From: Minisyncoccota bacterium
GTDB taxonomy: Bacteria > Patescibacteriota > Minisyncoccia > Phycocordibacterales > UBA1006
Length of the DNA: 64,000 nt
Direction of reading: 5' to 3'
Assembly: GCA_036405175.1 (NCBI GenBank)
Contig: DASWYC010000002.1
Span: forward strand, 537,080 to 601,079
The notes beneath the pieces are model-generated. The model was not told the DNA's origin. It was given only the letters and a program-made list of their open reading frames with translations, and ran no database searches. The stretch's first letter is position 1, and each line of letters starts with the position of its first letter. Of this stretch, positions 34,557 to 62,555 are shown in pieces. The translations under genes and the position numbers were made by a program.

Positions 34557-35210
34557 ATGCTACAAACTCATGAACGCGTCGTTTTCTTAATTGACGCACA
34601 AAACTGTTATCACACAACTCAAAATCTCTATCATCGTAATCCAAACTTTTTGGGAATCATTAAAGAAATTCTTGGTGATCGCCATCTTTTACGTGCACTT
34701 GCATATGTAATTGCAACGGAAAAGGGGGACGAAACCGCATTTCTTGAAGCACTTTCTTCAAACGGTATTGAGCTCCGTAAAAAAGATCTTCAAGTCTTTT
34801 ACGACGGCGCCAAAAAAGGTGATTGGGATGTTGGAATGGCTATTGATGCGGTTATTCTTGCCGAAAAAGCTGACACTATTGTGTTGGTTACGGGAGATGG
34901 AGACTTCGTTCCACTCGTGGATTATCTTCGTCATAAAGGTGTTCGCGTTGAAATTGCATCATTTGTACAGCGCACCTCGCAAAAACTTGTTGATGCGTCG
35001 CACCGATTCTTTAATCTTTCAGAAGCACCATCAAAATTTGTGATTGGAGGATTGGGCAATAACGGCCGTAAACATGCCGCAAAACGCCCACGTGCAAAAG
35101 CAAACAATGCTAATAGTAATAGTGCAACAGGAAATACCACTCCGGCAGCACCAAAAAAGCAACAAGCGCCTGAACAGGTGAAGCTTACCAAAGCGAATAG
35201 TGTTAACTAA
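34557..35210 (+). CDS. NYN/LabA-like (PIN-related) domain protein with basic C-terminal tail
   Basis: …VFLIDAQN…DVGMAIDAVILAEKADTIVLVTGDGDFVPLVDYLRHKGVRV… matches the NYN/DUF88 core. Confidence 0.7.
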   Translation: MLQTHERVVFLIDAQNCYHTTQNLYHRNPNFLGIIKEILGDRHLLRALAYVIATEKGDETAFLEALSSNGIELRKKDLQVFYDGAKKGDWDVGMAIDAVILAEKADTIVLVTGDGDFVPLVDYLRHKGVRVEIASFVQRTSQKLVDASHRFFNLSEAPSKFVIGGLGNNGRKHAAKRPRAKANNANSNSATGNTTPAAPKKQQAPEQVKLTKANSVN

Positions 35211-35213
35211 TAT

Positions 35214-35241
35214 AAAAATCGCAGAGCAATCTGCGATTTTT
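35214..35241. terminator. Bidirectional terminator aaaaatcgcagagcaatctgcgattttt
   Basis: 9-bp stem with A/T flanks, between convergent genes. Confidence 0.7.
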
Positions 35242-35249
35242 ATATATTT

Positions 35250-36041
35250 CTAAAGAATAAAATCTTTTGAAAACTTTTTTGTATAGGCTTCAGCTTTTTT
35301 AATATTCCGTGAAATTCTTAGTTTGACTTTGTGATTTCCATTAACCAACTCTGTTACACGAGCAACCAATTCTTTTTCTGTATCCGATGTTTCATAAATG
35401 CCGTCCAAGTCTTCAGCAAAACCAACCGTAAATTGAGCTTCAAAAACATAATCACCCAACACATTCACATATTCATATGTAGGAATTTTATAATCAAGGC
35501 CCGTATTAATAGAAATAAAATCTGATCGATACTTCTTTGCAAACAACAAATCATTTTCTGTATCTTTTGCAACACTTACACATAACCTACGCTTATCTTG
35601 ATTAAATTTATTAAATACAGCCTCTTCACTTTCTTTATGGGCCACCATAAACCACTCGTGGGGATCGTAAATAAAAACTGGTCCGTTTGTTTCTGAATAT
35701 GCCTGCAAAAAGTAATGCGCCCAGATTCTGTCTGTCTCCAAAGGATTAAAGAACGAAAGTGCAATAGAATCACCCTCTTCAAGATGGTTTGGAAGAATAT
35801 TTGACGGAGAGAGGGAAGCAATGAGCTTTTCTTTCCATAAGTTATTTATAAGGAATTGGGTACCCTGTTTAAGCACCACCTTTTCTTCAATCAGATTGTT
35901 GAGGGATTTATACATTCCTTGTTTTGAGTATTTAGCTTGTTTATTTATTGAACCTAAAAGATCTTTTCCTGATTGAGGGGATATTTGAAGAAGCGTATCA
36001 ATAATAAGTTCTTTTAAATGTTCTGAGCGAAAGAGATTCAT
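35250..36041 (-). CDS. Putative wHTH transcriptional regulator (TrmB/MarR-like N-terminus + ~200-aa C-terminal domain), paralog 1
   Basis: N-terminal …SPQSGKDLLGSINKQAKYSKQGMYKSLNNLIEEKVV… Colinear similarity to ORF 37694-38491 over the full length, for example …KVKLRISRNIKK… versus …KFTLRIYKNSQK…. Confidence 0.5.
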   Translation of the reverse strand: MNLFRSEHLKELIIDTLLQISPQSGKDLLGSINKQAKYSKQGMYKSLNNLIEEKVVLKQGTQFLINNLWKEKLIASLSPSNILPNHLEEGDSIALSFFNPLETDRIWAHYFLQAYSETNGPVFIYDPHEWFMVAHKESEEAVFNKFNQDKRRLCVSVAKDTENDLLFAKKYRSDFISINTGLDYKIPTYEYVNVLGDYVFEAQFTVGFAEDLDGIYETSDTEKELVARVTELVNGNHKVKLRISRNIKKAEAYTKKFSKDFIL

Positions 36042-36146
36042 ATGTTATTAATAGTATAAACCAATGGTTTACTATTTTTATATTCACTACTCTTACTAAG
36101 CAGATCTACACATTTTTAAACTTTTTCTTTACAAAGTGACCAATAT

Positions 36147-36172
36147 TTGACTATTTACTGAAAGTATTGCAA
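36147..36172 (+). promoter_or_regulatory. Operator/promoter-like motif TTGACT-atttaCTGAAAGTATTGcaa upstream of the 36264 gene (copy 1 of 2)
   Basis: Near-identical motif at 38617-38643. Both lie in the divergent spacer next to a paralogous wHTH regulator. Confidence 0.55.
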
Positions 36173-36263
36173 ATATCAGATACAGTATCCTAGAAATCAT
36201 TTAAAAAACCTGTTTACTGGTTACCCTAAAATGGAAAACCTATGCTCATCCTACGCTTAAGAA

Positions 36264-36731
36264 ATGGATAGTAAACATAAACCATATACGAACATGTCAC
36301 TATTAATGTTTATCATTATCGCAGCCGTTATTCTTATCATTAGCGCATATTTCATTATTGGACAAATGTCTATGATGCCAAAGATCTACCCTGAGGCTAT
36401 TGCTAAGCATGGCGATATTGAGCAGCTCAACATCAAAAAGGACAGAATGGCAAGGATATTTTTTATCATAAGTATTATCTTTTTTATAATAGGCTTACCC
36501 ACGTACTTCTTGTTTGAAACTTTTGGTGCAATGGTACGCTCAGAAGCAGGGAGGGCTTCTCTTCTTGCACTAGAAGCATTGGGTTTTTCTATGTTCTACC
36601 TTATGGTTTACTTAAAAAATCTCCACGATGACGAAAAAGTCCTTACGAATGAGCCCGTTGATCTGAGCCAGATTCCCAATACTGCACCAGATTTTATAGA
36701 GGCTATTCCAGGGGCTTCTAACCTCACATAG
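36264..36731 (+). CDS. Hypothetical membrane protein (3 TM helices)
   Basis: Hydrophobic segments LLMFIIIAAVILIISAYFIIG, IFFIISIIFFIIGLPTYFLF, LLALEALGFSMFYLMVYL. Confidence 0.5.
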   Translation: MDSKHKPYTNMSLLMFIIIAAVILIISAYFIIGQMSMMPKIYPEAIAKHGDIEQLNIKKDRMARIFFIISIIFFIIGLPTYFLFETFGAMVRSEAGRASLLALEALGFSMFYLMVYLKNLHDDEKVLTNEPVDLSQIPNTAPDFIEAIPGASNLT

Positions 36732-36909
36732 AAGTCTTTAGCGTTTTTCACAATAAGAGTAATTATAATAATTACTCTTATTTTTTTATCCACCTTGGTA
36801 AACCTTTACTTTACAATCTATTAATTATTTACATATTTTAAGCAATTTTGTCAATAATCTACTAGAATGGTTCTTGAAGCAACTACCTGTTTCATTCAAA
36901 CCAAAAACT

Positions 36910-37680
36910 ATGAAAAAAGAACTTATCATCATTGTCGGAGCAAACGGAGAAATCGGAACTGAATATATCAACTCCTTAAAAACCAATTTGAATATTGAAA
37001 TACTTGCTGTTACACTTTCAAAACCTTATCACGATCCTTCAATTAACAATATTAGAGTTGACGTGCGAGATTATGAGGCGATTGAGCAGGCACTTGCTCA
37101 CATTAATTTACAAGACTACTTACGCGTTATTTATCTTCACTCTATTGGAACAGACGTATTTGAGTGGACTAACTACCCTCAAAAGCTTTATCGAAAAACT
37201 ATTCCGGAAAGCGTTTATGATTCAAACGTAAACACCTTTAAATATCTTTTACGATATTTATCAGAAAAGCTAAAGCGCACCAATACTGAACTTAAGGTGG
37301 TACAAATTGCCGGAGTTGCTGATAAATATGGATTTATGGTGATTGAATCGTTTCATGAGTGTAAAAAAATCACGAGAGCCTATGCGCGAGACCTTTGTGA
37401 TCTATATCCAAACATTTCAGGGCTTACAATTAATATCACCTCTTGTATCACCAAATCAGCATTGGAAGTGCGTCCTTTTGCGGATACTTCAAAGGGATGG
37501 CTTACACCTCAGGAAGTTGTATCTGAAAGTATTTCTTCAATACTAAGTAGCGAATGTGGATATCAAGAAATAAATATTCTCAAGCCGCTTCCCAGCTTTA
37601 ATCCTCAGGAATATTACGAGAATCAAGATCGTATATATGAAAAGTGGGCTAAAGAAATTGGAATCAAAAAAGCCATGTAA
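36910..37680 (+). CDS. NAD(P)-binding Rossmann-fold protein (SDR/epimerase-like)
   Basis: N-terminal IIIVGANGEIGTEY glycine-rich dinucleotide-binding motif. Confidence 0.5.
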   Translation: MKKELIIIVGANGEIGTEYINSLKTNLNIEILAVTLSKPYHDPSINNIRVDVRDYEAIEQALAHINLQDYLRVIYLHSIGTDVFEWTNYPQKLYRKTIPESVYDSNVNTFKYLLRYLSEKLKRTNTELKVVQIAGVADKYGFMVIESFHECKKITRAYARDLCDLYPNISGLTINITSCITKSALEVRPFADTSKGWLTPQEVVSESISSILSSECGYQEINILKPLPSFNPQEYYENQDRIYEKWAKEIGIKKAM

Positions 37681-37697
37681 TTTCATGGCTTTTTTAT
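37666..37697. terminator. Bidirectional terminator aaaaaagccatgtaatttcatggctttttt
   Basis: Stem gccatg…catggc with A/T flanks, between convergent genes. Confidence 0.65.
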
Positions 37698-38491
37698 ATA
37701 ATTTCTTTTTTAATTCTTTTCCAAATTTTCTGTTGTTTTTGAGAGTTTTTGTAAATACGGAGCGTAAACTTTGAAGGATTATCAATTACCCTATTAACAA
37801 TATCTCTTGGTGTACCAGATTCAAAAAAATCAGTCATCATATCCATCCACTGTGAATCATATGTAGTCTCAATCATATAATCATCAAACAAGTTAAACCC
37901 TACATATTTATCAAGCTTTTCGTCAAACACCACCTGCACACCCAGAGATCTAATTTCCGAGATATCAGCCATCATGGTGTCATTAATAGCAGGAAGAGAG
38001 ACCCAAACGATCGAGTATCCAAAACTTTGCAAGTGCTTGATAAAAAGTGTTGCCTGTTCTTTTGAGTACCGGAAATACATTGAATACGGCTCAAACAAAC
38101 AATAATATCGCTTTTCTTTCTGAGACTTTTTTAAAAGGAAAGCTGCATTGTCCCAAAAGTTATTAAGATCCTTAAAAGTTTCAAATACGAATGACACCTT
38201 GGAGGTGTCTTTAATTTCCGGTAAAAACGCAAGAGTAGCATCATCCTTATAATAAGTTTTAGTGAGTGCTAGGTAATATTCTCGAATACGAGCAATAAAT
38301 AATGCAGAAATAGCTAATATTTTTGCATTTTCGATAATTACTTCTTTATCCTTAAGCTTATTAATAATCTTATAAACACCCTGAGGAGTCATGGAAAGCT
38401 TTTTTGAAATATCAGAAATAAGTTTCTTTTTTATAATTGGTCCTTTTTCGAGTAGCTCAATTACTTCTTTTTCTGGAGAATCAAACACCAT
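37694..38491 (-). CDS. Putative wHTH transcriptional regulator, paralog 2
   Basis: N-terminal …ISKKLSMTPQGVYKIINKLKDKEVI… Colinear similarity to ORF 35250-36041. Confidence 0.5.
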   Translation of the reverse strand: MVFDSPEKEVIELLEKGPIIKKKLISDISKKLSMTPQGVYKIINKLKDKEVIIENAKILAISALFIARIREYYLALTKTYYKDDATLAFLPEIKDTSKVSFVFETFKDLNNFWDNAAFLLKKSQKEKRYYCLFEPYSMYFRYSKEQATLFIKHLQSFGYSIVWVSLPAINDTMMADISEIRSLGVQVVFDEKLDKYVGFNLFDDYMIETTYDSQWMDMMTDFFESGTPRDIVNRVIDNPSKFTLRIYKNSQKQQKIWKRIKKEII

Positions 38492-38616
38492 ATTGAAATT
38501 AGTGTATCATATTTTAAACTCAATGTTTATTTTTTTAATTAAAACTACCCCATACACCACATTAAATGCAAAATTTGTTTATTTTTAAACTATTTATTTA
38601 AAATGGTGCTGTATTA

Positions 38617-38643
38617 TTGACTTTTTCTGAAAGTATTGTGACT
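38617..38643 (+). promoter_or_regulatory. Operator/promoter-like motif TTGACT-ttttCTGAAAGTATTGtga upstream of the 38698 gene (copy 2 of 2)
   Basis: Matches 36147-36172. Followed by tatact -10-like hexamer at 38651. Confidence 0.55.
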
Positions 38644-38697
38644 TTAAACTATACTGTTCTCAGATAAATTATTTACAAACCAAAAACATTTAAAAAT

Positions 38698-39168
38698 ATG
38701 AAAAATATATTAGTATACGGACAAAGAAACAGCTTCATTGAAAATGACCTTAATACAGGCTGGACTATATATGGCAATGTATCAGTTTTTGCAGCCTACA
38801 AAGGCATGCATCTATCAGAAGAAGGTGGCTTTGGTGAGAATGAAGTACAAATAGAGTTCTCTCAAAAAATGTCATCACACCTCTCGCTATCATTATTGAT
38901 CATGCTTCAAGAATATTCTCATTTATTCGACAAAGTATATGTTTATCTTGATGGGGTAAGGTATACAACACTCATTGATGAGTTACAATTCCGCAATATC
39001 CCAGCAGATAAAGTTATATTCTTTATTATGCCCGACAAACAGTCTACACTTAAGAAAGAACAGTATCTGGAGGAGCGTGGGTATGGAAAGTCTGAAATAA
39101 TTGATTGTGACTCGTGTGCGGTGGAAGAAATAGGAATACTTATAAACAATTTTAAAAAGGAGGTATAA
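38698..39168 (+). CDS. Hypothetical protein (156 aa)
   Basis: Clean ORF. Operator motif upstream, strong terminator downstream. No recognisable motif. Confidence 0.5.
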   Translation: MKNILVYGQRNSFIENDLNTGWTIYGNVSVFAAYKGMHLSEEGGFGENEVQIEFSQKMSSHLSLSLLIMLQEYSHLFDKVYVYLDGVRYTTLIDELQFRNIPADKVIFFIMPDKQSTLKKEQYLEERGYGKSEIIDCDSCAVEEIGILINNFKKEV

Positions 39169-55463: not shown

Positions 55464-55489
55464 AAAAGCCTCAATTTCTTGAGGCTTTT
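55464..55489. terminator. Bidirectional terminator aaaagcctcaatttcttgaggctttt
   Basis: 9-bp stem gcctcaa…ttgaggc with A/T flanks, between convergent genes. Confidence 0.7.
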
Positions 55490-55739
55490 ATCGTATATGA
55501 GTAATATAAATTTGTTGTTTTCTTAGAGATTCGATAATTTCTTCAGTATGAGCAAGAAGATTTTGTTTTTGAGAGGGAAGAAGCTTAATAGTGAGTGCTG
55601 CGTGACCTTTTTTAACATGAGCTTGTGTGAAAGGCACATCAATATACTGCTGCAATGCTTCAAAAATCACCAATTCTTCTGGCTTTTTTATTGAAAAGTG
55701 CTGAAGGAGCTGAGGAATCTGTGCAGTAATATGATTCAT
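55488..55739 (-). CDS. Small protein downstream of dnaN, possibly DUF721/DciA-like
   Basis: 83-aa ORF. …TQAHVKKGHAALTIKLLPSQKQNLLAHTEEIIESL… loosely fits the DUF721 pattern. Conserved position after dnaN. Confidence 0.35.
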   Translation of the reverse strand: MNHITAQIPQLLQHFSIKKPEELVIFEALQQYIDVPFTQAHVKKGHAALTIKLLPSQKQNLLAHTEEIIESLRKQQIYITHIR

Positions 55740-55864
55740 GAATTAAGTATACGCCAACCAACCACCTGTTCATGAATAGCGATATACACATCTTGACGGG
55801 TTATTGAGTAAGTTTTTTAAGTTAAAAGCACATTACTGTGCTTTTAAGATCGCAAGGTATACCA

Positions 55865-56971
55865 CTATGCTTGCATTGGCATGATTAAGTAGGTGAAATC
55901 TGGAGTATCTTTACCTCTAATGGTAAGCGGCTTCTTAGGAGAAATAGTAAATATCAACACATCGCTGTGGATTTTTGAAATTCCTTCAATTAAATACTGT
56001 TCATTTAAGGCGAAGGTGTATTCTTCACCTTCAAGTGCACCTTTAATAACTCCTTCTATTGAACCTTTTTCATCATTTTCTGTTTTCACCACCATTCCAA
56101 CTTCACTATTGAGCGAAACAGTAAGCTTGCGCACTGAATTTGAAACCACGGAAGACAATTTAAGAATATCTTCAACATCGCTTTTTAGGCAGGTAACCTT
56201 TGAGACTGTTTCTTGAGGAATAATACGCTGATAATCAGGGAACGCTCCATCAATATGACGCACCATAAGCGTAGTTTTTGGTAGTGAAACACGTAACAAG
56301 TGCTCAGACACACCACATTCGCAGCTTTCTTCTGGTGTAAAATTGCTTAAAATCTTAACCATATCCACCACGTTCTTAATAGGGATTAAAATTTTTGGAA
56401 ATCCTTGTGGAACGTTAATTTTCTTTTTAAGCTCTGCAAGACGAAATGAATCTGTTGCTACAGAAACTAATGTTTCATCAGTTTCATTTCTCCATAAACA
56501 TACTGCAGCAATTTCAGGTTTAATATCCGATGAAGATGCAGCAAACTCCACCATCTTAAGCAGCTCACTAAATTGACCAACAGGAAGCGAAAAGGTGAAA
56601 GTGTCACTTGGTAATGGAGTTGATGGAAATTCTTCTGATGAGACAATTTTGAGCGTCACAGATACATCAGGAGATATAACTTTCATTATTCCTTTTTGAA
56701 CATCAAGAGTAATAGTAGATTGTTTTGAAATTTTACTAATAAGTGCCGTAAGAAGCCCACCATCAACACATACTGATCCGGAAACTTCTACTTTTGCAGG
56801 CAATGCAACTTCAAGGGCGCAATTAAGATTGTTTGCGCGAATTGTACATCCGTCTTCATTGCATTCAATAAGATAGTTTGTAAGTAGTGGTGTCAAACTT
56901 TGCTTAATTGAAATTCCTGAGAGGATTCTCAAACTTCGTTCAAGGTCTTCCTGGGTAAAACTGGCTTTCAT
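55865..56971 (-). CDS. dnaN: DNA polymerase III beta sliding clamp
   Basis: 368 aa, three-domain length. Immediately downstream of dnaA. N-terminal MKASFTQEDL…L pattern typical of beta-clamp. Confidence 0.85.
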   Translation of the reverse strand: MKASFTQEDLERSLRILSGISIKQSLTPLLTNYLIECNEDGCTIRANNLNCALEVALPAKVEVSGSVCVDGGLLTALISKISKQSTITLDVQKGIMKVISPDVSVTLKIVSSEEFPSTPLPSDTFTFSLPVGQFSELLKMVEFAASSSDIKPEIAAVCLWRNETDETLVSVATDSFRLAELKKKINVPQGFPKILIPIKNVVDMVKILSNFTPEESCECGVSEHLLRVSLPKTTLMVRHIDGAFPDYQRIIPQETVSKVTCLKSDVEDILKLSSVVSNSVRKLTVSLNSEVGMVVKTENDEKGSIEGVIKGALEGEEYTFALNEQYLIEGISKIHSDVLIFTISPKKPLTIRGKDTPDFTYLIMPMQA

Positions 56972-57295
56972 AGTTGTATATTACTGCTTTTTAAAAATAA
57001 ATAAAAGTAATAGCAATAGATAACAGTAAGGTTTGTGGATTTTGTGAATAACTCGAAAAGTGCCTTAAATTTAAGGAAGTTTGATGACTTTTGACTGGGG
57101 AAATGCAAGGAATAACTCGGGGAATTATTATAGGAAAACATGGGGAGAATATGTGAATAGTATACCCGTGGGGGAAAACCGAACGTTATCCTGGGGTTAT
57201 TGATAGGTTATCCTGAAGGAAATCCACGCATAATCCCCAGTTATTTGGGGAAACTGGGGATGAGACACTTGAATAAGTGTATATGAATATATGTA
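56972..57295. promoter_or_regulatory. dnaA–dnaN intergenic region with DnaA-box-like sites and ≥7 iterated TGGGGA(A) motifs: candidate oriC module
   Basis: tgtggattt, atccacgc, ttatcctgg, ttatcctga. G4 tracts at ~57097, 57118, 57142, 57170, 57193, 57247, 57256 on one strand plus one inverted copy (taatcccca). Confidence 0.55.
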
Positions 57296-58681
57296 TTACC
57301 GAGTAGCTAGGTGTCCACGAATGGTTTCAAGGTCGTGAATCATTTGCGCATCATTTTGAGAAAGATCTTTTACTTTTTCTACCGAGTGGATTACGGTTGT
57401 GTGATCACGTCCTCCAAATTCCTTACCAATATTAGGGAATGAAATATTATAGTCCTCGCGAAGAATATACATTGCTACTTGGCGCACATGCACTACTTCT
57501 TTCCTGCGCGTTTTATCAAAGAGTTCTTCTGGTGATTGATTGAAGTAGTTGGCAACAATCTTTACAATATCTTCAATTGAAACTGATTTATGGGCTTTTT
57601 GGCTGTTTTTAAGAAGATTTCCCACAAATGCTGGCGTTACTACTTCTGGCCGGGTCTTCATGGTGGTAATCACTAAATTACACATTCCTTCAAGTTCACG
57701 AATATTTCCCTCCAATGCTTCAGCAATAGCAGAAATAATCTCTTCTGGAAGCACTACGCCTTCTTTTTCAGCCTTTCGTTTAATGATTACATAGCGAGAT
57801 TCATAATCCGGAAGACTTACATCAACCGTCATTCCTTGTTGGAATCGTGATGTCATGCGAGATTCAAATCCCTGCAAGAGTGATGGGTGCTTATCTGATG
57901 AGAAAATAATTTGTTTTCCTTCGTTGTGAAGTTCGTTAAAGATATTAAAGAGAATTTCCTGCACTTTTTCTTTTCCTCCCACAAACTGAATATCATCAAC
58001 AATAAAAACATCATATTTTGTATAGCGATTTTTAAGATTGTTAATACTATTAGTGATGTTTGGATTCACAAATGAATTAATGATATCAGTGATAAATTTA
58101 TCAGAACTTGTATAAAACACTGATAATTCAGGATGTTTTTCACGAAATGCATTTCCAGTTGCCTGAATAAGATGCGTTTTTCCAATCCCGGTAGGTCCAA
58201 AAATAAAGAGCGGATTGTATTTTCCTGGTTCATTTACCGTTGCAACAGCAGTGTGATATGCAATTTCATTAAACGTACCTAAAATATAGTTATCAAAGGT
58301 GTAGCGTGTATTGAGATTGCTGAGTTTGTTTACATACAGGTCAGAAATAGGTAATTCATTGCCAAGTTGTTGATGAATAGGTTTCTTTTCTGATTTTGGT
58401 TTGTCAGTAATGGGGTTTTTGCGTGAAACGGTAAATTCAATAGCACGAATTGAGTCATTAATTTCTCGTAAAATGCGGAGCAAGGTTTTTTGGAATTTAG
58501 TAGCAAGCCATTCTTTTACAAATTCATTCGGTGTTCCAAGATAAACGGTACCCTCATGATCAACTGAATCAATAAACGTTCCTTTAAACCATGTTTGAAA
58601 TGCTGCTGGTGAAATTTCTGTTTGGAGTTTCGTCAATGATTCTTCCCATAATGATTGTGTATCAAGTGATGAAATTTCCAT
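57296..58681 (-). CDS. dnaA: Chromosomal replication initiator DnaA
   Basis: AAA+ Walker A GPTGIGKTHL; Walker B …VFIVDDIQF…; C-terminal DNA-binding domain …LIGKEFGGRDHTTVIHS…. Confidence 0.9.
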   Translation of the reverse strand: MEISSLDTQSLWEESLTKLQTEISPAAFQTWFKGTFIDSVDHEGTVYLGTPNEFVKEWLATKFQKTLLRILREINDSIRAIEFTVSRKNPITDKPKSEKKPIHQQLGNELPISDLYVNKLSNLNTRYTFDNYILGTFNEIAYHTAVATVNEPGKYNPLFIFGPTGIGKTHLIQATGNAFREKHPELSVFYTSSDKFITDIINSFVNPNITNSINNLKNRYTKYDVFIVDDIQFVGGKEKVQEILFNIFNELHNEGKQIIFSSDKHPSLLQGFESRMTSRFQQGMTVDVSLPDYESRYVIIKRKAEKEGVVLPEEIISAIAEALEGNIRELEGMCNLVITTMKTRPEVVTPAFVGNLLKNSQKAHKSVSIEDIVKIVANYFNQSPEELFDKTRRKEVVHVRQVAMYILREDYNISFPNIGKEFGGRDHTTVIHSVEKVKDLSQNDAQMIHDLETIRGHLATR

Positions 58682-58896
58682 AGTTGAATACTATTATACG
58701 TGGATACAATTTTGTGCAAAACCAACAACCATACTACAGGTTATCCACAAAAAGTTGTAAAGACTGTGGAGAAATAGGAAAATAAGGGGAAAGACCTGTG
58801 GATTAGTGTGGATAACTTTGGGGATTAGATGTTGAATAGATGAAGGTCCTAAAAACTCTTGCAAAATAGGCCGAACTTTGATAGTATTTCTGTACT
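58682..58896. promoter_or_regulatory. dnaA upstream / rpmH upstream region with DnaA-box cluster (2 perfect + 3 imperfect) and candidate rpmH promoter TTGCAA-N17-TAGTAT
   Basis: ttatccaca at 58741-58749 and tgtggataa at 58807-58815 are perfect. cgtggatac, ctgtggaga and tgtggatta are imperfect. -35/-10-like hexamers at 58859-58887. Confidence 0.6.
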
Positions 58897-59031
58897 ATGT
58901 CAATTACGTATCACCCACGAAAAAAGAAAAGAAAGACTACTCACGGATTCTTGGTACGCATGAAAACCGCGAATGGACGTTCTGTAATCCGTCGCCGTCG
59001 TGCCCAAGGACGAAAATCATTGAGCGTGTAA
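58897..59031 (+). CDS. rpmH: 50S ribosomal protein L34
   Basis: [44 protein letters not shown] is canonical L34 (44 aa). Missed by the longest-ORF track because an overlapping frame was reported instead. Confidence 0.9.
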
Positions 59032-59048
59032 TACGCTATAGTAGGCAT

Positions 59049-59396
59049 ATGATACCTAAATCATGCCGACTCAGTTATCAAGACATTTTGATAGTAAAAA
59101 AACAGGGTATTAGAACACGGATTTCGTGGATTTTAGTGCAGTCTATGCCTGTGCCGCAAGGTAATTCAGCTAAATTAGGAGTGGTAGTAAGTAAGAAAAT
59201 TGCATCAAGCTCAGTAGCTCGTCACCGGATAAAACGTATTTTATTGGATGAACTTTTTTCTACGGCTCTTACAACAAATAAATATATATTAGTGAGTATT
59301 CAACAACTTCCTGAGGGTGTGGGAAGTTTAAGAACAGTTGCGGAGCGGCGTGTTTTTAGAGAGGAAATTGGAAGAATCGCTGAAAAGCTTATATAA
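59049..59396 (+). CDS. rnpA: Ribonuclease P protein component
   Basis: 115-aa basic protein directly after rpmH, …LGVVVSKKIASSSVARHRIKRILLD…. Confidence 0.85.
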   Translation: MIPKSCRLSYQDILIVKKQGIRTRISWILVQSMPVPQGNSAKLGVVVSKKIASSSVARHRIKRILLDELFSTALTTNKYILVSIQQLPEGVGSLRTVAERRVFREEIGRIAEKLI

Positions 59397-59399
59397 AGT

Positions 59400-59606
59400 A
59401 TGGGAGTTCTTAAATCAACTTATAAATTTATTCGTATTATTACCCAAACAGATTATGTGGGGGAATGCCGCTTTCACCCTACCTGTAGTGAATATTGTGC
59501 TGAATGCTACAAAAAATATGATCCATTTAAGGCTACAGTAAAGTCTGCGTGGCGATTATTACGATGTAATCCATGGAATAAATCATATGGAGTTGATGTG
59601 CCGTAA
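59400..59606 (+). CDS. yidD: Membrane protein insertion efficiency factor YidD
   Basis: …CRFHPTCSEYCAECYKKYDP… has the conserved Cys pattern. 68 aa. Confidence 0.85.
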   Translation: MGVLKSTYKFIRIITQTDYVGECRFHPTCSEYCAECYKKYDPFKATVKSAWRLLRCNPWNKSYGVDVP

Positions 59607-59617
59607 TGTAGATTAAT

Positions 59618-59655
59618 AAAAACAGCCCGATCAGCGAAGCTGATCGGGCTGTTTT
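59618..59655 (+). terminator. Palindromic terminator aaaacagcccgatcagc-gaag-gctgatcgggctgtttt
   Basis: 16-bp perfect stem with GATC-containing core ccgatcagc/gctgatcgg. Core recurs at 60948-60990 in inverted orientation. Confidence 0.7.
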
Positions 59656-59727
59656 ACTGTAAATTTAGACCACAGATAAATATAACGATTACTTGGTAAA
59701 AACGGAATTTCGTTTATACTAGAATCC

Positions 59728-60459
59728 ATGTTTAAGACAATTTTTGTTGCACCGCTTTATAACGCCTTTATTTTTATTACCTCACATGTAGGAAATTCTG
59801 CAATTCTTGGGCTTATTATTATCACTTTGATAATCAAACTTATTTTGCTCTACTTTACCTACAAAACCACCATCTCTCAGTGGTATCAAAAACTCCTTGA
59901 GCCAGAAGTTGAAGCTATTAAAAAGAATGTTCTAGATACAATTGAACAAAATAAACAAGTTTTTGCACTGTATGGGCGCTACAATATTAATCCATTTTCA
60001 GGATGTCTCCCTATTTTGATTCAATTACCAATCATTATTGCGCTTTATCAGATTTTTTATCGAGGAATTGATGCCTATAAAGAACTTTTATATGTGCCAT
60101 TTGATTTAACTACGATTTCATACACAATCGCTGGGCTTGATTTCTCTCATTCGGTACCACTGTTTGCAATTCTTGCTGGAGTTGTGCAATTCTTGTATGG
60201 ATATTTGAGTCAAAAGCGCCTTGATACTATTCAGAAAAAAGTAAACCAAGGAATTGTTAAAGAAGTAAATCCAGAAAATCCTCTTGATATGTCGAATATT
60301 CTTAAGAAGCAAATGCTCTATTTGGCACCAGCGATGATTATTGGATTTGGATTGTATTTGCCAGGGGCAGTAGCAATCTATTGGATTATTTCTACTGGAT
60401 TTAGTATGCTACAAGAAGCAGTGATGTGGCGCCGCTGGAAGCGTAAACATCTCGCCTAA
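59728..60459 (+). CDS. yidC: Membrane protein insertase YidC (short form)
   Basis: 5-TM 60-kDa-inner-membrane-protein core (…PFSGCLPILIQLPIIIALYQ…), 243 aa. Position after yidD. Confidence 0.85.
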   Translation: MFKTIFVAPLYNAFIFITSHVGNSAILGLIIITLIIKLILLYFTYKTTISQWYQKLLEPEVEAIKKNVLDTIEQNKQVFALYGRYNINPFSGCLPILIQLPIIIALYQIFYRGIDAYKELLYVPFDLTTISYTIAGLDFSHSVPLFAILAGVVQFLYGYLSQKRLDTIQKKVNQGIVKEVNPENPLDMSNILKKQMLYLAPAMIIGFGLYLPGAVAIYWIISTGFSMLQEAVMWRRWKRKHLA

Positions 60460-60463
60460 TGGT

Positions 60464-60934
60464 ATGAATACTGAACACCACAAAGAAATTGCTCAAAAAA
60501 TACTCGCATATTGTGGTGAAGAAGTACTTGCGGTAGAAACAACCATACGAAGCGATCTTGGGGTAACCTTAATTAATTTCCGCCTCACCGACGGTAAGAA
60601 ATTCATCTATAATCAAGGTGAAGCATTGCGTGCGTTCAATACGGTTATTCGCTCAATTGTTGAAAAAAATGTTGGAACACTTAAAGAGACTGCGTGGCTG
60701 ATAGATATTAATAATTTTTATTTTCATTATATTGAGGATATTCAGCAAGGAACACGGCACATTATTGAAAAAGTAAAAAAGACCGGAAAACCTCATGACC
60801 TGCCACCTCAAAATCCGTTTGATCGACGTATTGTGCATCATACGGTGCAGAGTGATGGTCACGTAATTTCCACCTCAGAAGGAGAAGGGTTTGAACGACA
60901 CATTGTTATTTCTTTGAAGGAAAGCGGTGAATAA
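60464..60934 (+). CDS. Jag/KhpB-like R3H-domain RNA-binding protein
   Basis: C-terminal R3H region …FDRRIVHHTVQSDGHVISTSEGEGFERHIVI… Conserved position after yidC. Confidence 0.75.
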   Translation: MNTEHHKEIAQKILAYCGEEVLAVETTIRSDLGVTLINFRLTDGKKFIYNQGEALRAFNTVIRSIVEKNVGTLKETAWLIDINNFYFHYIEDIQQGTRHIIEKVKKTGKPHDLPPQNPFDRRIVHHTVQSDGHVISTSEGEGFERHIVISLKESGE

Positions 60935-60947
60935 AAAAGTGGGAGGA

Positions 60948-60990
60948 TTGATAAGAGTCCGATCAGCTTCGCTGATCGGACTCTTATCAA
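60948..60990 (+). terminator. Palindromic terminator ttgataagagtccgatcagc-ttcg-gctgatcggactcttatcaa
   Basis: 19-bp perfect stem. Same core as 59618-59655 with different outer stem. Confidence 0.7.
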
Positions 60991-61001
60991 ATTGGATAGT
61001 T

Positions 61002-62555
61002 TTACTTCACAAAATCAACCAACGATACCATCCAAGGTTCCATAGTTAAGCGATTAATGAATCCAAAGTATTTATTTTCCGAACTAACCACTCCCTTAAA
61101 TACATCTACTTCTTCTGTAGGTTGAGGAAGACTAATTAGAATATTATCTATGATGCTATACGCCTTAATTTCATCATTCGTACTATAGCCCTTAAGCCAC
61201 TCGTCGGGACTTAATCCACCATCAGCAGGTATTCCGCAAATAATATATTTTGAATCATGGGTCCAAGCGCATTTATCAGGAAGGGTAACAAATGGAACTT
61301 GTATAGAAATGAACGTTGAATTATTAAGGATATAAAGTGTTTGGTGATCGTCACTTTCTGAATAGAGGGTGTAATTCCCATCAGGGCTTACTAATGTCAT
61401 AAGTCCGGGAATATTTTCTAATAATGTAGTGCGAGCGCCAGTTTTTACATTAAATTTATATGAAACACCGTCATATCCTGTTGCGGGGCGGGCTGTTAGT
61501 ATTAAGGTCTCTGAGTTTGGAAATTCATGATTAAAATCAGTGAATGGTGATGTAAAAATTTGATTATAGGTTGCTGGTTTTGATACATCACTTATAACTC
61601 CAAAGGAAATAGAGTCGTTATTAAGCAAAAGAATGCTTCCCTTAGTGTCTGTGGGTGACAATAACATATCATTTACAGTATTGCTTTGGAGTTGATATGT
61701 AAGGAGATATTCTGGTATTTCTTCACCACTTGCTCTTTTTTCTTCCTTGATGATGTCTGAGCACGTATTTGAAAGAAGATTTAATGTAGTTTGGTCAAGT
61801 AAGCCTGTTGGTTTTTTAGAAAGACTTTTTTGTGTTTGAAATACCTGAATAAGACTTTGAACATTTGTCTTGTAGTCTGTAAAAGGAGGAAAACTTGCTG
61901 GAATTATAGAGTTAACTTGAAGTAGTCCGTATATTTGCTCGAGTTCTTCCTGATTATAAATATTTTTTTTATTAATTACCAGAGAATAAGGGCAATAATT
62001 AGTATTATTTTTAGTAAGATAGCCAACACGATGACTCAAGCTGGTAAGTGTTCGCGAACGGGCAATAATAGTTGAGAGATTATTTCCAAAACTCGCATCA
62101 AACAGCTCTGGCGTATCACCGCTCGCAAAAAGCGTTTCTTGAGGCTGGGCATTTTTAAAAGCTATGCGTTTAATAGTTCCATTTTCTTCTGTAATTAAAC
62201 GTGGAAATGGAAGAAATTGCGGAAGATCTGGAGAGCTTGAGACTATAGATTCCTCAGGGACGCTAATTCCCACAGTAGGGGTGGTAGTTAATTTAACTAC
62301 ATTTGGAATACCTTGTGAATCATTATTAAAATCTTTAAGACTATTAGGAATTATTTTTTTTGTTTGTTCTCCAAGATATTCCGTAACGGTATCAACGGTT
62401 TCGCGTGTAAGATTTTTAATACCTTCAAAAAGAGTAGGATTTCCCTCGCTAGTCTTAGGTTCTCTGCTTTTGAGCGCTGTAACCACAATAATGATTACAA
62501 TTAAAATACCACCAACAATAAGAAATAACTTTCCGCGAGACTGTCCTGAATTCAT
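61002..62555 (-). CDS. Membrane-anchored extracytoplasmic protein with probable beta-propeller (PD40/TolB-like) C-terminal region
   Basis: N-terminal TM helix LFLIVGGILIVIIIVVTAL. Repeated …DG.Y… strand-like segments (SPDGNYTLYSESDD…, DGVSYKFNVKTG…). Confidence 0.5.
   Translation of the reverse strand: MNSGQSRGKLFLIVGGILIVIIIVVTALKSREPKTSEGNPTLFEGIKNLTRETVDTVTEYLGEQTKKIIPNSLKDFNNDSQGIPNVVKLTTTPTVGISVPEESIVSSSPDLPQFLPFPRLITEENGTIKRIAFKNAQPQETLFASGDTPELFDASFGNNLSTIIARSRTLTSLSHRVGYLTKNNTNYCPYSLVINKKNIYNQEELEQIYGLLQVNSIIPASFPPFTDYKTNVQSLIQVFQTQKSLSKKPTGLLDQTTLNLLSNTCSDIIKEEKRASGEEIPEYLLTYQLQSNTVNDMLLSPTDTKGSILLLNNDSISFGVISDVSKPATYNQIFTSPFTDFNHEFPNSETLILTARPATGYDGVSYKFNVKTGARTTLLENIPGLMTLVSPDGNYTLYSESDDHQTLYILNNSTFISIQVPFVTLPDKCAWTHDSKYIICGIPADGGLSPDEWLKGYSTNDEIKAYSIIDNILISLPQPTEEVDVFKGVVSSENKYFGFINRLTMEPWMVSLVDFVK

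Follow-up and report, generated by a model that had tools for sequence, protein, structure and literature searches.

Gene neighborhood and G-run array of the dnaA–dnaN spacer

The window analyzed here is the whole 64-kb stretch of DNA, and the feature under study is the 324-bp spacer at positions 56972–57295, which lies between two minus-strand genes, dnaN and dnaA. The first of these (55865–56971) encodes a DNA polymerase III beta clamp of 368 aa with Pfam DNA_pol3_beta domains 1–3. The second (57296–58681) encodes a protein of 461 aa that was identified as DnaA by Pfam, by its translation, and by alignment to solved DnaA structures, and that has the recognition helix GGRDHTTVIHS; both genes carry their full Pfam domain sets. 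On the opposite flank of dnaA, rpmH, rnpA, yidD, yidC, and jag follow on the plus strand, and these gene surroundings are the classic origin neighborhood. Cumulative GC skew over the 64-kb window drops from position 1 to ~55 kb and climbs from ~57 kb, a turn at the spacer that matches the expectation for an origin and bears out the placement made in the initial annotation, which had named GC skew as the check. The dnaA–dnaN spacer is thereby supported as the replication origin (oriC) of an ultra-small bacterium, whose DnaA assigns it to the Paceibacteria (Patescibacteria/CPR). A search of 56500–59100 against Rfam gave no match at E ≤ 1, and a scan of the spacer for sigma-70-like promoters and intrinsic terminators found neither. 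Short ORFs inside the spacer (21–57 aa) lie in sequence that is unconserved in relatives.

Several other features of the surroundings were recorded. In the mechanical ORF list, rpmH (ATG at 58898) and rnpA are fused as one 172-aa ORF with a TTG start (58878–59396, plus strand), and the gene calls of contig L108 give an rnpA of 115 aa and a yidD of 68 aa. A 517-aa ORF (61002–62555, minus strand) and an 83-aa ORF (55488–55739, minus strand), both without a Pfam match, flank the origin block, and they are also adjacent to the origin in the relative whose DnaA is 89% identical (L112/L113). The block itself (jag-yidC-yidD-rnpA-rpmH, dnaA-dnaN) is flipped with respect to these flanks when window positions 55488–62555 are compared with L112:1–7401. 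The order in the window is 517-aa gene, origin block, and 83-aa gene with PBP1a; in L112/L113 it is PBP1a with the 83-aa gene, origin block, and 517-aa gene. The arrangement suggests that a small segment spanning oriC was inverted. Elsewhere in the window, the composition profile shows a region at 35000–39000 with a GC fraction of 0.33–0.34, compared to ~0.40 in the remainder.

Seven runs of at least four G start on the plus strand of the spacer, at 57097, 57119, 57142, 57170 (a run of five), 57193, 57247, and 57256, and a single inverted copy (CCCC) is found at 57235. The intervals between starts are 22, 23, 28, 23, 54, and 9 bp; the spacing of 21–29 bp first described for the array therefore holds for the first five tracts and fails for the later intervals of 54 and 9 bp. 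Every G-run and DnaA-box-like string quoted in the initial annotation was located in the sequence, as were two GGGGA motifs that it had placed upstream of dnaA (58786–58790 and 58820–58824). The spacer reaches nine GGGG/CCCC per 200 bp, which is the maximum of the 64-kb window (every 200-bp stretch elsewhere has fewer than six), and the array is non-random, mostly one-stranded, and regularly placed, in support of the earlier description. The hexamer TGGGGA occurs 16 times in 64 kb, counting both strands, with five occurrences inside 165 bp of spacer sequence and one upstream of dnaA. Near variants of its complement TCCCCA are also present in the spacer (CCCCCA, ACCCCA, and TCCCCG).

The repeat families that were detected have two copies of 8–17 nt and none of them covers the array, whose repeating unit is a core of 6–9 bp only. 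Plasmid-type iterons, which consist of direct repeats of ~17–22 bp together with a Rep gene, were considered and rejected on this basis, and there is no rep among the neighboring genes.

Probable DnaA-box variants and the predicted layout of the origin

Read on the strand that encodes dnaA, the repeated motif is (T/A)TnTCCCCA, i.e., the DnaA box TTATCCACA with A replaced by C at position 7 (hereafter C7, as opposed to A7, sites); the left half and the C8-A9 end are common to both. The C7 sites have two or three strict mismatches to TTATCCACA, and zero or one if position 3 may be W, position 5 N, and position 7 either A or C. Several sites have three strict mismatches and 9-mers matching the relaxed pattern occur at ~1.75 per kb across the window, so a single site is not significant alone. 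For the spacer as a whole, the observed box count was matched in 6 of 2000 Markov-1 simulations. Within the window, C7 boxes are most densely clustered in the dnaA–dnaN spacer, and A7 boxes in a 300-bp stretch from ~58508 that overlaps the region upstream of dnaA; the spacer has ~8 C7 and three A7 sites, and the region upstream of dnaA has four good A7 boxes.

The recognition helix of the DnaA encoded here is canonical, and the protein can be aligned over its full length to solved DnaA structures. The helix core DHTTV(I/M)H (DHTTVIH in the window) does not vary among the 120 homologues retrieved. Because the helix is unchanged, this DnaA would be expected to read sites of the TTATCCACA type. 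Position 7 is stringent in DnaA of the E. coli type, and the affinity of C7 sites may thus be very low.

The dnaN side of the spacer has the predicted layout of a standard unwinding module, composed of tandem boxes, a 4-bp linker, trio-like repeats, and an AT-rich stretch. This last element, at 56972–57001, is the candidate DNA-unwinding element; GC is 0.22–0.23 in 60-bp windows at 56960–57049, the minimum of the spacer. In L107 and L112, the two close relatives described in the next section, no part of the spacer is better conserved than the block from TTTTATTTATTT to AAAAAGCAGTAATATACA. Next comes a DnaA-trio-like array on the plus strand at 57002–57029, read from the sequence as 5'-TAA AAG TAA TAG CAA TAG a TAA CAG TAA-3'. 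In the 3' to 5' direction, leading away from the boxes, the array gives AAT GAC AAT (a) GAT AAC GAT AAT GAA AAT, with three trios at 4 bp from the proximal box, a 1-nt offset, and then six more. The linker (57030–57033) is GGTT on the plus strand and AACC on the dnaA strand, and CCCC in both L107 and L112. The trio-proximal box AAATCCACA (57034–57042, minus strand) is 62 bp from the dnaN ATG, with TTGTCCACA as its counterpart in L107 and TCATCCACA in L112. The second box of the pair, TTATTCACA (57043–57051, minus strand), is at 71 bp and has one mismatch, at the tolerated position 5; L107 has TTATCCACA at this site and L112 has TTTTCCCCA, with A7 and C7 swapped at a fixed position.

The rules of a published search program for the basal unwinding system (BUS), the unwinding module of origins, ask for a box with at most two mismatches, an optional second tandem box with at most four, a spacer of 0–16 bp, and at least three NAN trios (PMC8287927). 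The sequence of the window fits this pattern: TTATTCACA has one mismatch and AAATCCACA two, a gap of 4 bp separates the pair from TTA CTG TTA (dnaA strand), and beyond the trios lies the AT-rich region (GC 0.22–0.23) that a BUS should have. Counted from the better box, the distance to the trios is 13 bp, and 13 bp is the modal box–trio spacer reported for these systems (PMC8287927). The strand of the trios relative to the boxes was assigned from the notation of the BUS papers and from the pattern conserved in Paceibacteria. The initial annotation had seen no resemblance to the DnaA-trio, which is correct for the G-runs but overlooks the trio-like array ~70 bp away. Six of the distant Paceibacteria spacers (L002, L004, L011, L049, L051, and L052) contain a very similar and cleaner module, for example TCCACAtaTCCACAgcgCTAATAGTAATAATAG.

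The sites of the array proper begin farther from dnaN, and the first five of them are on the minus strand. They are a C7 (W-type) box, ATTTCCCCA, at 57096–57104 (124 bp from dnaN; TTATCCTCA in L107 and CTTTCCACA in L112); a weaker C7-type site, AATTCCCCG, at 57118–57126 (146 bp; TCATCCCCA in L107 and ATATCCACA in L112); a C7 box, TTCTCCCCA, at 57141–57149 (169 bp; TTATCCCCG at 167 bp in L107 and TTATCCCCA, shifted to 158 bp, in L112); an A7 box-like site, CTATTCACA, at 57152–57160 (180 bp; TTATTAACA at 179 bp in L112 and a TCCACA core ~2 bp off in L107); and the C7 box TTTCCCCCA at 57169–57177, which corresponds to the run of five G on the plus strand (197 bp; TTATCCCCA in L107 and TTATCCACA at 195 bp in L112). 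Two overlapping half-sites at 57186–57200, TTATCCTGG (plus strand, 57186–57194) and ATAACCCCA (minus strand, 57192–57200), are weak matches and the least certain members. Three boxes on the plus strand then face dnaA, namely TTATCCTGA (57208–57216), AAATCCACG (57220–57228), and TAATCCCCA (57231–57239), the last two being 11 bp apart from start to start. Two abutting C7 boxes on the minus strand, GTTTCCCCA (57246–57254) and TCATCCCCA (57255–57263), fall in an alignment gap and are without counterpart in L107 and L112.

A second cluster of boxes lies upstream of dnaA at 58699–58827, in a block that is kept in L107 and L112. On the dnaA strand it comprises TAATCCCCA (58819–58827), TTATCCACA (58807–58815), TAATCCACA (58797–58805), CTTTCCCCT (58785–58793), TTCTCCACA (58765–58773), and GTATCCACG (58699–58707), with one inverted TTATCCACA on the plus strand (58741–58749). 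Most boxes of the spacer face the unwinding module and the few nearest dnaA (57186–57239) face the opposite way, an arrangement of opposite-facing dnaA-proximal boxes that also occurs in L107, L112, and distant relatives. Spacings between boxes are 9, 52–53, 22–23, 11–12, and 16–17 bp, mostly near multiples of a helical turn for the few sites available. Inverted box pairs near dnaA were also observed in distant spacers, either TGTGGA..TGTGGA or, in L031, TGGGGA..TGGGGA, and two arrays thus face each other.

Position 7 in close and distant relatives

Relatives were sought in genome contigs, in metagenome contigs, and in a search of 5.8 billion proteins. Those with DnaA identity above ~50% were limited to L107 (92%) and L001, which is the same as L112/L113 (89%); L108–L111 are the same strain as the window and have an identical spacer, and the fine-scale conservation described here rests on three genomes (the window, L107, and L112). 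The three spacers were anchored at the dnaN start and compared ungapped, with the spacer bounds of the close relatives taken from gene calls in place of automatically picked dnaN starts, which shortened some spacers (that of L108, for example, to 225 bp). Boxes in the three genomes stand at 62, 71, 123/124, 146, 167–169, 179–180, and 195–197 bp from the dnaN ATG, and base 7 at these shared positions is A, C, or, once, T. Identity around the boxes, at 63–215 bp from dnaN, is only 36–52%. In each relative, six of the seven window sites have a site at the same place, compared to ~1.3–1.5 expected under random placement (P ~1e-4), though kinship inflates the independence assumed in this value, and the coincidence of positions is partly inherited, and not independently selected, in three related genomes.

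L107 carries the full 9-mers TTATCCCCA, TTATCCCCG, and TCATCCCCA, and TTATCCCCA, which has a single mismatch to the consensus, is present in both L107 and L112. In the conserved canonical-box block upstream of dnaA, the window and L107 both have TAATCCCCA where L112 has TCATCCACA. C7 sites thus interchange with canonical boxes at orthologous positions. Conservation of the TGGGGA spacing across related spacers had been put forward as a check on the array; the relatives keep the box positions and have A7 boxes (TGTGGA) in place of G-runs there. A 55-aa gene is called on the opposite strand inside the dnaA–dnaN spacer of L112 (L112:4446–4613, minus strand), overlapping the box array; this call is probably spurious.

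For a wider view we used 51 unique dnaA–dnaN spacers from distant Paceibacteria, totaling 12 kb with GC mostly between 0.15 and 0.35, and 112 kb of coding sequence as controls. The canonical core TCCACA was counted 100 times in the spacers and 40 times in the controls, and TCCCCA 22 and 53 times, respectively. Counts for the other two bases at this position were 0 and 23 for TCCGCA, and 3 and 50 for TCCTCA. Among exact 9-mers in the same 51 spacers, TTATCCCCA occurs 11 times and the perfect consensus 19 times. The three bases that precede TCCCCA are T (85%), T (80%), and A/T (95%), which is the same TT(A/T) prefix that canonical boxes have.

Spacer pairs that can be aligned show recurrent A7/C7 swaps at matching positions. 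L002 and L004, which are 90% identical, differ at two box sites, with GTTATCCCCA versus GTTATCCACA and GTAATCCCCA versus GTAATCCACA. The neighbor of the trio-proximal box is itself C7 in L002 and L011, and the regions upstream of dnaA follow the same trend. C7 would accordingly be a common and positionally interchangeable box variant across Paceibacteria, as judged from these alignments and counts, and this is new. One spacer of the set (L010:3857–4216) begins with a homopolymer tract of the A8-G7 type (aaaaaaaagggggggtaaaaaagg) and, at 360 bp and GC 0.38, is unusually long and GC-rich for the group.

Interpretation of the array and comparison with known origins

We put the probability at roughly 85% that the iterated TGGGGA(A) motifs are DnaA boxes of the C7 type, belonging to the W-box hexamer class, within a conventional two-module oriC. 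The spacer is most likely a normal origin with many predicted initiator sites that are probably weak. The architecture had been called unusual, a description that does not hold up: apart from the C at position 7 the motif reads as an ordinary DnaA box, relatives have canonical boxes in its place, and TCCCCA is the hexamer of the Caulobacter W-box.

An array that runs on one strand with regular spacing of 22–28 bp could also represent iterons bound by a protein other than DnaA, either origin-binding or regulatory and specific to the lineage (cf. CtrA, Spo0A, AdpA, HP1021), the likeness to DnaA boxes then reflecting overlap or competition. Other bacteria do have regulators whose sites overlap DnaA boxes (PMC4285127), and the nine GGGG/CCCC of the window spacer, against four or fewer in each of ~60 related spacers, also count in favor of this reading. 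We nevertheless consider such a protein quite unlikely: only the 6–9 bp box core repeats, with no longer repeat family found; canonical A7 boxes stand at the same positions in L107 and L112, where a GGGG-specific protein would lose its sites; and the genes beside the spacer (dnaA, dnaN, rpmH, rnpA, yidC, and jag) include no candidate for it. What stands of the original proposal of iterons for an origin-binding protein is that the array is probably a set of binding sites, which we assign to DnaA itself and not to a separate protein. Folding of the G-runs into a G-quadruplex, or of the C-rich strand into an i-motif, as an aid to unwinding or a mark of it is very improbable. Seven G-runs of at least four on one strand and a local G4Hunter score of 1.36 around 57240–57264 are in its favor, but no match was found to G3+N1–7 or G3+N1–12, the loops being 18, 19, 24, 18, 50, and 5 nt long, the G-runs are 90–290 bp from the AT-rich unwinding site, and the TGTGGA that replaces them at the same positions in relatives would abolish a quadruplex. 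The suggestion of a G-rich structural element, for which quadruplex prediction had been the proposed check, is therefore not upheld, with no pattern at loops of up to 12 nt and most loops at 18–24 nt.

The remaining alternative is that the C7 sites have no role in initiation, being either former boxes that have decayed and lost their function or a product of base composition. Many of the sites do have two or three mismatches, relaxed matches are common (~1.75 per kb window-wide), the sequence between boxes evolves quickly, and decay is possible for individual weak sites such as 57186–57200 and 57118–57126. As an account of the array it is unlikely, since the positions are kept in three genomes while their flanks diverge and the Markov-1 simulations of the spacer seldom reach the observed count (6 of 2000). 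In addition, TCCCCA is ~4-fold denser in the AT-rich Paceibacteria spacers than in coding DNA, and TCCGCA and TCCTCA are nearly absent from those spacers.

The C7 boxes resemble the W-boxes of the Caulobacter crescentus origin, Cori. Three reviews describe these (Taylor et al., 2011) as having the consensus TCCCCA and as very weak DnaA sites that need cooperativity; there are five of them, they depend on G-boxes, and higher W-box affinity can lower replication (PMC4285127, PMC4468827, PMC6393856). Common to both systems are a core, TCCCCA, that equals the last six bases of a DnaA box with C as the fourth, and several copies inside a chromosomal origin that outnumber the stronger boxes, with the affinity in our case predicted from sequence. 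Caulobacter W-boxes are described as 6-mers that act together with G-boxes; CtrA sites are interspersed among them, and the origin lies between hemE and duf299. The sites here, in contrast, are full 9-mers with a TT(A/T) left half, located in a dnaA–dnaN spacer beside a module of box pair, trios, and AT-rich DNA, and no CtrA-like sites were seen in this spacer.

In overall layout, the origin appears to match the bipartite type of Bacillus subtilis, with a BUS. Shared features are the dnaA–dnaN location, and tandem boxes, a short linker, NAN trios, and AT-rich DNA next to dnaN (PMC6669920, PMC8287927, PMC10721633), as well as additional upstream boxes, at distances that may be helically phased here, and a second cluster upstream of dnaA. 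The incC upstream boxes of B. subtilis raise local DnaA and show helical phasing (PMC6669920). Unlike in B. subtilis, the upstream boxes of the window are mostly C7, the trio array has a frame offset of 1 nt, and exact GAT is infrequent (two GAT, four AAT, and one each of GAC, AAC, and GAA).

Two further systems offer partial parallels. In E. coli, oriC likewise has arrays of low-affinity sites that are co-oriented, sub-consensus, and more numerous than the high-affinity boxes, in two groups that face each other (Rozgaja et al., 2011, summarized in PMC4285127). Gaps of 2 bp give those sites an 11-bp register, in an origin that is not adjacent to dnaA, whereas the sites in the window are mostly 22–23 bp apart. 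For the dnaA–dnaN origin of Mycobacterium tuberculosis, the sequence of a primer pair called "DnaA box 8-9" includes CTGTCCCCA, a 9-mer of the C7 type (PMC2607554); unlike the sites here, it stands alone among 13 degenerate boxes, and the genome is GC-rich.

A literature search found no paper pairing DnaA boxes with Patescibacteria. Searches for the 9-mers TTATCCCCA and TGGGGATAA returned unrelated primer matches only, and one for TTGTCCCCA together with DnaA found nothing relevant. A "weak box" of Streptomyces may have the sequence TTGTCCCCA, and it forms no part of the comparison. What appears to be new here, from comparison of sequences, is the taxon, the interchangeability of C7 across Paceibacteria, and the near-exclusive use of C7 in the upstream boxes of this genome.

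If the motifs are DnaA boxes, oriC would consist of a basal unwinding module on the dnaN side and an array of ~7–9 sub-consensus boxes on the dnaA side, held at fixed positions ~11, 22–23, or 52 bp apart, most oriented toward the unwinding site and a few in the opposite direction. By analogy with established models, DnaA would occupy the better boxes, which are the pair next to the trios and, upstream of dnaA, the perfect copies of TTATCCACA, and ATP-DnaA would then fill the weak C7 boxes cooperatively. The filled array may raise the local DnaA concentration or guide the oligomer, possibly via a loop, onto the trios, where the duplex would open. Low affinity of the C7 sites would tie initiation to the level of active DnaA.

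Seen as C7 boxes, the odd G-rich repeat would be explained as ordinary origin grammar, and no new mechanism is opened. The window would provide the first sequence-level picture of oriC for a Paceibacteria (CPR) lineage, with a box pair, trios, an AT-rich stretch, and a positionally conserved array of the TCCCCA type. The results also suggest that, for Paceibacteria, TTATCCCCA should be included among the boxes that origin-finding programs recognize. Switching between A7 and C7 at fixed positions would amount to a small, clean natural experiment on the upkeep of weak initiator sites. A further proposal, which we make only tentatively and think less likely than not, is that Paceibacteria DnaA may take C7 about as well as A7 despite its unchanged helix, and that lineages such as this one would switch fixed boxes between the two to tune initiation, this genome being an extreme with C7 in nearly all of its upstream boxes. 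If that is true, position 7 would give ultra-small, host-dependent bacteria a natural dial by which affinity, and with it origin firing, is set.
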